Made by a program: the position numbers. Of a stretch of 11,478 nt of DNA, positions 1-1,407 are shown in pieces. The stretch's first letter is position 1. The number at the start of each line of letters is the position of its first letter. The stretch comes from a virus. The DNA lies in UHGV virus genome UHGV-1558479. One strand, written 5' to 3'.

Positions 1-1407
1 TCTACAGCTTTGTCAATGCTAGCGGTTCTGATATCAGTGTTACCTAAAACTATAAATTCACATTGGCGCTTGTTAGGAAGAGTTCCCAAAAATATAACGT
101 TCTCAATAATTTTTTCCTGCTGAATGTTATCATTGCTGAGATGTTGATATACAGCTTCAAGCTGTTTTGGCTCTCTAAAAACGATGCTAAAACCTTGGCT
201 TTTAAGTGTAAAAACTGTTTTATTTTCATGCAGATAATGAATGAATGCTCCATCATCATTATCCAAGCTTGCCTGAAATATTTTTCTGGCCTTATTAATA
301 GCTTTTGCTACTGGGGTTTCTTCATCGAATTCAAGAGGAGCATCAGGTCTAAACTCTTCAAGTACGAATCCGAAAGAACCACGGGCTGACGCGGTAATCA
401 TGAGATGATTATTTTCTATGTTTGGTATCTTGCCTGATGCAGGAAGTGGGCCATTGAAAGAGGTTGCCAAGTAAGCTATTGCATCATTAAAACAAGATAT
501 AGCTTTTGTTCCAAATACTGCTGAAATGCCATGCGTGCCAACTACTGTTGGGCCTCTAAAAGTTAACACAGCATGCGTAGGTTCATGTTCTCGAACGTCA
601 GCTTGTGAAATTAATCGCTCAACTTTCTCCAGACGGTCTTCTAAGCTTTTTCGGCTAATAGAATGACTTGTTGGCATATTTTTTAATAGATTACTTATTT
701 GCTCGCGCTCACTGAGAGCGAAAACATAATCATTACGATTCATTGTTTGACCCCCTCAGTAGTAGCCGAATTAAGTATAGTCATTGCCACAACATCAAGT
801 TGTGGGTTTAACGGGATTTGGATAAATCCCTTCCACGACAGATCGCGTCTATGTGCCCACATACTGTACCAATATACAGTCATTTCAACAAGCTCATGAC
901 TTGGTAGATTAAGTTCTTGGAAGTAGGAATCTACGAAAAACTCCTTCTTACCAAAATCATGATCAAATAGCTCTGGCTTTCTACCGATTACGATTGCATC
1001 ATTATCGCCATTACTGAATTGAAAAAAGGTCACAACATCGACATCATTCGGTGGCCTTTTTTCAATAAGTTCAATATGTTCTGTGAAGCTTCCATCTACC
1101 CACTGAAAACCTTCAACTAGCCCTGCTTGAGTGAGTGAAACACGAAAGTTAAGAAAACCCTTAAGGATTTTAATCCTTGCAGGGCTAAGCGAAAAAGTAC
1201 TAACAAAGCGTACTATATCCATTTTGTATGGGGAACGAGTATGGCTTGTAGGATCAGCCTCGTCTATTGGGGGGATTAACCCCATCTCATTCCATAGAGA
1301 GACAGTTGGTATACTCAATGCTTAACCTTTATAACGAACTGAATATTCGGCAAAATATTGTTTTTAGGTATTGGCTGCTGTGCTTGTCGGACGTTTATTT
1401 CGTGTCA

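Follow-up and report, generated by a model that had tools for sequence, protein, structure and literature searches.

The locus and its reading frames

The stretch of DNA analysed here, called the window, comprises 11,478 nt of the virus genome UHGV-1558479 and is the immunity and early-right region of a lambdoid prophage. Directly downstream of its cI repressor gene, on the same strand, lies a two-gene cassette: the first gene codes for a 192-aa protein that an earlier note, made from the sequence alone, had taken for a possible polymerase-beta-type nucleotidyltransferase (NTase), and the second, its partner, is cut off by the left end of the window. The relevant features, with the evidence for each in brackets, are:

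1..743, minus strand: 5' part of the partner gene, about 247 codons, truncated by the left window end (translation; alignment to locus L001)
740..743, minus strand: ATGA overlap of NTase stop and partner start (read from the sequence)
740..1318, minus strand: DUF6932 NTase-like gene, 192 aa, first of the cassette (open reading frame (ORF) list, Pfam, PHROG, PADLOC, AlphaFold)
929..931, minus strand: codon of D130, the likely third catalytic carboxylate (alignment invariance and model strand)
1037..1093, minus strand: codons of the GS-x14-DxD motif (G76-S77...D92-V93-D94), the predicted NTP-binding turn and two metal-binding Asp (coordinate mapping)
1319..1404, minus strand: spacer of 86 nt between cI and the NTase gene (sequence; promoter and terminator scan)
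1405..2118, minus strand: lambda-type CI repressor gene, 237 aa, LexA/S24 family (DNA identity, RefSeq annotation)
2166..2194, plus strand: PR-like promoter TTGACT-17-GATAAT, driving cro (promoter scan)
2219-2419: cro (ORF list, RefSeq annotation)
2558-2857: cII (ORF list and annotation)

The window cI has about 90% DNA identity to the cI genes of lambda, HK106 and mEp234, and downstream of cII follow replication, nin-region, Q, holin and lysozyme genes. The PR-like promoter marks the OR region and thereby places the cassette on the PRM/cI side. In the spacer between cI and the NTase gene, the scan found no terminator and no good promoter on the minus strand. The NTase frame starts with TTG, and alternative annotations begin at M12 (181-183 aa); the long 192-aa form is supported by the Shine-Dalgarno sequence AAAGG 7 nt upstream of the TTG (1326-1330) and by an N-terminal IPxWN segment that is kept in distant DUF6932 homologues. 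Elsewhere in the window, 3020-3796 (plus strand) encode a helix-turn-helix (HTH) replication-initiator-like protein whose N- and C-terminal parts are separated by a Gly/Ala-rich repeat, GGAGAARGGAGAALGGGAGAA.

A probable divergent nucleotidyltransferase fold in DUF6932

The 192-aa protein is very probably a divergent enzyme of the DNA polymerase beta (Pol-beta) NTase fold with an apparently intact catalytic set, and by sequence comparison it lies outside every named NTase family except DUF6932. Its match to this Pfam family (PF22014) covers profile positions 3-141 of 142, with E 1.2e-25 and 91.1 bits (cut-off 27), and all 46 homologues aligned here match the family too. The protein belongs to phrog_9194 and also weakly matches the PADLOC model PDC-M63A (E 1.1e-9, 36.5 bits). 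DUF6932 comprises about 2,000 clusters at 50% identity, nearly all of them stand-alone proteins of about 190 aa. The literature searched held no mention of DUF6932, PF22014 or the RefSeq accessions, and the contig index had no record of the exact 192-aa protein.

The stretch WVDGSF-x14-DVDVV, on which the proposal had been built, is present in the product, and 1037-1093 are exactly the codons from G76 to D94. Of the general signature to which it had been likened, hG[GS]x(9-14)DhD, the GS-x14-DxD part fits, whereas the hydrophobic residue before G76 does not, its place being taken by D75; the residue before G-S is D or N in 46/46 family members, giving a family motif h[DN]GSF. The caution that so short a motif might occur by chance was well placed, since the motif by itself is weakly significant: among 665 unrelated proteins encoded in the fetched loci, 23 contain the pattern G[GS]x9-14[DE]h[DE]h, and so do 1.9% of shuffled versions of the 192-aa protein. 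What lifts it above chance is the invariance of five residues (G76, S77, D92, D94 and D130) across the 46 homologues, with identity down to about 36% (alignment A1), together with their expected strand placement in the predicted model. The conservation of the four motif residues that the earlier note had made a check of its proposal is therefore complete in this alignment. Its placing of a third acidic residue in ELFDHDF fared otherwise: D119 and D121 are not conserved, and it is instead D130, 36 residues past D94, that is invariant and a credible third catalytic carboxylate. Codon 123 (window 950-952), which adjoins the nearly invariant K124, reads G in the window; V stands at this place in the family consensus and also in the cluster representative P0001, which is 99% identical.

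The AlphaFold2 model, based on the alignment, has high confidence (predicted local distance difference test (pLDDT) 91.2; predicted template modelling score (pTM) 0.87). Its first half is predicted to consist of a helix at 46-64, a strand at 69-76 ending in G76-S77, a short helix at 82-85 and a strand at 93-100 starting at D92xD94; its second half, of helices over 107-127, a strand at 129-135 bearing D130, a helix at 140-154, a strand at 166-169 and a helix at 172-191. The structure prediction that had been suggested as a check thus puts G76-S77 and D92/D94 on the expected strands, with the [DE]h[DE]h element (D92-V-D94-V) on the second core strand and a further carboxylate (D130) on the next. 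Pol-beta-fold NTases share this motif-to-strand register, and from the residues retained the protein would be expected to be catalytically active.

A closer affiliation within the superfamily did not emerge from the comparisons made. Foldseek of the model against the PDB gave nothing at E <= 0.001; the second-ranked match was the minimal NTase 2rff (non-significant), the nearest small structural neighbours by these non-significant scores are proteins of the minimal nucleotidyltransferase (MNT) type, and the CD-NTases CdnB, CdnE and CdnC as well as OAS are among the weak fold matches ranked below the minimal NTases. The top match, 5yep_A, was set aside as evidence because this chain may be either the MNT or the HEPN subunit. 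Scanned against Pfam at E <= 10, the 46 family members matched no NTase family and shared no recurring second family. Comparisons by hhalign of the family profile with AadA/ANT(3''), KNTase/ANT(4'), ANT(2'')-Ia and an MNT profile of three sequences (the L056 ORF, HI0073 and 8xeh) were non-significant, with probabilities of about 1% or less; the sole local alignment in the correct register was that to ANT(2'')-Ia (E 0.36), with G-S on G-G and D-V-D on D-I-D. Matches of the DUF6932 profile to designer pentatricopeptide-repeat sequences from the PDB were dismissed as repeat-summed artefacts in which no single stretch was significant.

An obligate pairing with a conserved partner

The NTase and its partner form an obligate two-gene module that spans bacteria and archaea. 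In a survey of 80 species-level genome loci encoding a DUF6932 relative, a homologue of the partner lies directly downstream wherever the contig is long enough (78/78 loci), the NTase is the first gene in all loci examined, and the two genes overlap in 74/77, the overlap being of the 4-nt ATGA type in 59/77. The ATGA overlap at 740..743 implies that NTase and partner would be translationally coupled in the window as well. Hosts of the pair include Enterobacteria, Burkholderiales, Planctomycetota, Myxococcota, Chlorobi and Desulfobacterota as well as Methanothrix and Methanomicrobia. On plasmids it is rare (7/72,556), and tblastn detected no homologue of it in any of 50,697 deposited phage genomes. 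Clustering of the neighbours in search of a conserved third gene gave restriction-modification (R-M) subunits and context-specific genes, none of them universal. An apparent NTase-partner fusion ORF in locus L043 is probably an artefact of simple ORF calling in GC-rich DNA. The earlier suggestion of a minimal NTase acting with a partner is supported in part; that the window encodes an NTase-fold enzyme within a fixed two-gene module can be held with considerable confidence.

The partner is full-length, at 309 aa, in Escherichia coli CE10 (locus L001). It belongs to phrog_18731, the E. coli protein has no Pfam, NCBIfam or PADLOC family match, and none of the at least 664 clusters of its family carries a Pfam domain. 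The model (pLDDT 92.3) predicts for this protein of about 305 aa an N-terminal helical hairpin, a small alpha/beta domain and a C-terminal oligonucleotide/oligosaccharide-binding (OB) fold; PDB profile matches to BAG domains were rejected as weak helical matches. The only fully invariant motif among 69 diverse partner sequences is G-S-F-G-F, residues 122-126 (window ~368-382, minus strand), predicted to lie in a beta-hairpin of the central alpha/beta domain. The family has no invariant His or Tyr, and Ser123, in this exposed Gly-rich hairpin, is its sole invariant nucleophile; the loop may be an acceptor site or a binding loop. Within the 3' part of the partner gene (L001 5988-6016, corresponding to about window 1-16 and just left of it, minus strand), there is a 10/12 sigma-70-like match, TTGACA-17-GATATT, probably by chance.

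Relative to L001, the window partner gene has a 54-bp in-frame deletion at 250|251 (minus strand), by which residues 163-181 (EELSDAIENLDSRALDKIR) are replaced by Gly and the nearly invariant D164, L167 and R177 are lost. The missing 54 bp are kept in 8/8 complete E. coli genomes with the cassette. The deletion has no flanking microhomology, the remaining 800 bp compared are identical to CE10, and the NTase gene is intact.

The nearest named relative of the pair is the PADLOC candidate PDC-M63AB. The NTase matches PDC-M63A, its partner has no match to PDC-M63B, and 5/69 partner homologues match PDC-M63B weakly (best E 4e-5). In view of these matches, the window pair is probably a divergent branch of PDC-M63AB, a candidate that is itself unvalidated; PADLOC would presumably not call the window locus, the E. 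coli partner matching no model. Another PADLOC candidate, PDC-M32A, is weakly matched by 8/69 partner homologues (alignment A3; best E 1e-6), a hint that partners of this kind may make up a wider superfamily.

Genomic contexts of the pair

Two kinds of setting recur: the slot behind a phage repressor and the interior of R-M operons. CE10 and seven further E. coli genomes, out of 5,426, carry the pair between cI and N, i.e., in the position of lambda rexA-rexB. In L001, a strong intrinsic terminator (5833-5854; an 8-bp stem with 6 G-C pairs, followed by a T-run) is found 14 nt past the partner stop, and beyond it come an OL/PL-like promoter-operator region (5613-5641) and then N. The lambda layout is cI-rexA-rexB-t_imm, and from its likeness to the arrangement seen here the pair would be expressed in lysogens from PRM, the cassette being co-transcribed with cI. 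Farther left in the CE10 prophage, outside the window, another uncharacterised accessory gene lies between cIII and N (L001 4466-5089), coding for a putative nucleotide-modification protein of the Nmad5 family (Pfam E 4e-71).

Rac-like prophages of Citrobacter, Klebsiella and Salmonella also have the pair behind a CI-type repressor. In two Klebsiella loci and one from Salmonella (L083/L084 and L087, 4425-6471), two different shorter CI-type repressors (131 and 155 aa) precede it, in prophages that carry YdaS/YdaT, O/P and RecE. Since the pair is thus found behind different repressors, it can be seen as portable cargo of a post-repressor slot that moves between immunity regions.

Outside the enterics, at least 24 of 78 loci show the arrangement HsdM-HsdS-[pair]-HsdR, and a YgjP-like metallopeptidase often follows downstream; the loci with the pair between hsdS and hsdR include L011, L012, L019, L041, L046, L056, L065, L069, L073 and L074. 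Type I R-M subunits dominate among the immediate neighbours, followed by HTH repressors, Macro, RhuM, Abi_C, Abi_2 and MmeI-type methylases, and the neighbour survey also recorded a Fic protein near the pair. This placement within R-M operons suggests that the pair is a back-up layer to restriction. The frequent insertion between hsdS and hsdR further suggests a second-line guard of type I restriction, with a logic comparable to that of PrrC. In one locus (1/148 neighbours scanned, alignment A4), the pair is adjoined by DUF6933 (PF22016), whose Pfam number is next to that of DUF6932. A literature search for rex-slot cargo and for NTase modules embedded in R-M operons found no description of the pair.

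Proposed function and alternatives

It is reasonably likely that the module is a defence or toxin-antitoxin-like system of the abortive-infection or exclusion kind. The explanation that we find best overall, that of a coupled NTase-partner conflict module whose chemistry is the nucleotidylylation of a macromolecule, with a scheme resembling type VII toxin-antitoxin systems as the preferred form, stands at about an even chance of being right as a whole. Under this scheme, the pair would be made in lysogens together with the repressor from the rexA-rexB slot (PRM to cI to NTase to partner to terminator, with PL to N beyond), and the upstream NTase would hold the partner inactive by covalent nucleotidylylation in the manner of MntA and HepT, the candidate nucleotidyl acceptor being the invariant Ser123 in the GSFGF loop. 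When control lapses on infection, the OB-fold partner might then bind nucleic acid and block growth. This form is preferred because the NTase gene comes first, as it does in HepT/MntA, because the nearest small structural neighbours are of the MNT type, because the sole invariant nucleophile of the partner sits in an exposed Gly-rich hairpin, and because in the window the partner bears a deletion beside an intact NTase, a pattern expected of a harmful partner. As this evidence consists of analogies and one natural allele, the direction of the scheme, with the NTase as a modifying antitoxin, is put forward tentatively, as a possibility suggested by likeness to known pairs. The defence role, the identity of the toxin and the acceptor residue are likewise what we infer from these patterns. 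More doubtful is the full generalisation by which the DUF6932 pair would constitute a widespread new class of anti-phage or toxin-antitoxin systems, its NTase controlling an OB-fold effector via nucleotidylylation of the GSFGF serine. The only experimental test of a related candidate was negative: deletion of PDC-M63AB in E. coli NILS69 brought no change against 10 phages (bioRxiv 10.1101/2024.12.20.629700).

The roles might also be the other way round. Within the module an enzymatic function is predicted for the NTase alone, AbiE and MenAT systems offer established cases of NTase toxins that prevent the charging of tRNA (PMC7450476, PMC10435456), and an NTase of this MenT/AbiEii-like kind could nucleotidylylate tRNA acceptor ends or other RNA and stop translation, with the OB-fold partner serving as antitoxin and/or infection sensor. 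Both the prophage and the R-M operon contexts would fit such abortive infection, and the OB-fold might bind phage single-stranded DNA or RNA as the trigger. We regard the toxic NTase as the main, though doubtful, alternative. A smaller place is due to an accessory function apart from any conflict, whether that of a small-molecule NTase like ANT(2'') or Lnu or that of a phage or R-M accessory, e.g., a factor for DNA repair or handling of single-stranded DNA; it is unlikely, in that obligate pairing with overlapping genes (74/77 loci) is foreign to resistance NTases, the protein is not significantly similar to ANT or Lnu, and the pair has a patchy, mobile distribution in bacteria and archaea, where it occurs as cargo next to repressors and inside R-M operons.

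Signalling is another option raised by the weak fold matches, which include the CD-NTases CdnB, CdnE and CdnC and OAS: a SMODS/CD-NTase-like synthase would make a second messenger on infection, with the partner as receptor-effector, and both the layout of a synthase gene followed by an effector gene and the defence-island context do resemble a minimal cyclic-oligonucleotide-based anti-phage signalling system (CBASS). Those fold matches, however, rank below the minimal NTases, no SMODS/CD-NTase model of Pfam or CBASS model of PADLOC is matched, and the partner has no SAVED, STING, CARF, SLOG, nuclease, TIR, transmembrane or phospholipase domain, the OB-fold alone being recognised, so that this is quite improbable. 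Least probable is coincidence, i.e., a motif that arose by chance in a DUF6932 that is a non-catalytic scaffold with a superficial resemblance to NTases. To its credit, the pattern turns up in about 2-3.5% of sequences by chance and every fold and profile score is sub-significant; the five invariant residues and their placement in the model speak for the NTase fold.

Should the preferred scheme, a conflict module with an NTase antitoxin, be borne out, it would have several consequences. DUF6932, a Pfam family of unknown function, would gain a biochemical assignment as an active minimal NTase, and a two-gene module that ranges from E. coli prophages to methanogens would become a testable defence or toxin-antitoxin system with a new partner architecture, extending the "enzyme antitoxin" principle of type VII systems to a non-HEPN toxin. 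The module would double as a replacement for RexAB in prophages of lambda immunity and as a back-up layer in type I R-M operons, and PDC-M63 would gain a mechanistic hypothesis along with residues to mutate (D92, D94 and D130 of the NTase; S123 of the partner). Its location in the rexAB slot makes for easy genetics: lambda-type lysogens can be used, the promoter is known, and a partner-deletion allele occurs naturally.

Relationship to known systems

Several known systems resemble the module in part. With lambda RexA/RexB it has in common the place between cI and OL/PL-N on the cI strand, the lack of a terminator after cI and the presence of one after the second gene, and the character of a two-gene cargo for which expression in lysogens is expected. 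There is, however, no RexA or RexB family among the Pfam matches of either protein, and a predicted NTase with a soluble OB-fold protein stands against a DNA-binding sensor with a membrane protein. The resistance enzymes ANT(2'')-Ia/Lnu(A) and ANT(3'')(9) differ in that the similarity is non-significant (E 0.36), and an obligate partner and a defence-type context are foreign to resistance genes. CBASS/SMODS differs in that none of its models is matched and the partner is without a known effector or sensor domain.

AbiE and MenAT are likewise two-gene abortive-infection or toxin-antitoxin modules of mobile elements that contain an NTase with the same logic of the catalytic motif (PMC7450476, PMC10435456). 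Unlike in these, neither window protein matches DUF1814/AbiEii or AbiEi in Pfam or PADLOC, the order is reversed with the NTase first, and the window NTase is about 100 aa shorter.

In HepT/MntA, too, a small minimal NTase lies upstream of, and overlaps, its partner, with GS...DxD and a third Asp some 30-36 residues on. MntA, the upstream MNT, uses G27-S28, D39, D41 and D71 to poly-AMPylate the toxin, and the MNT antitoxin motif has been defined as GSX10DXD (PMC7641770). The window NTase differs in its x14 rather than x10 spacing, in having no PF01909 match and a non-significant profile comparison, and in its length (192 aa vs ~100-140 aa), having at the N-terminus a conserved extension and in its C-terminal part a YWYxxWxHxR/WKG region; its partner is not a HEPN RNase, having neither Rx4HxY nor a Pfam HEPN match, and is predicted to be alpha/beta with an OB-fold rather than all-helical. 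Thus, the module works most like HepT/MntA or AbiE/MenAT and yet fails the defining tests of both; it might best be seen as an NTase-based two-gene conflict module of predicted function that combines a familiar catalytic logic with a new partner architecture.
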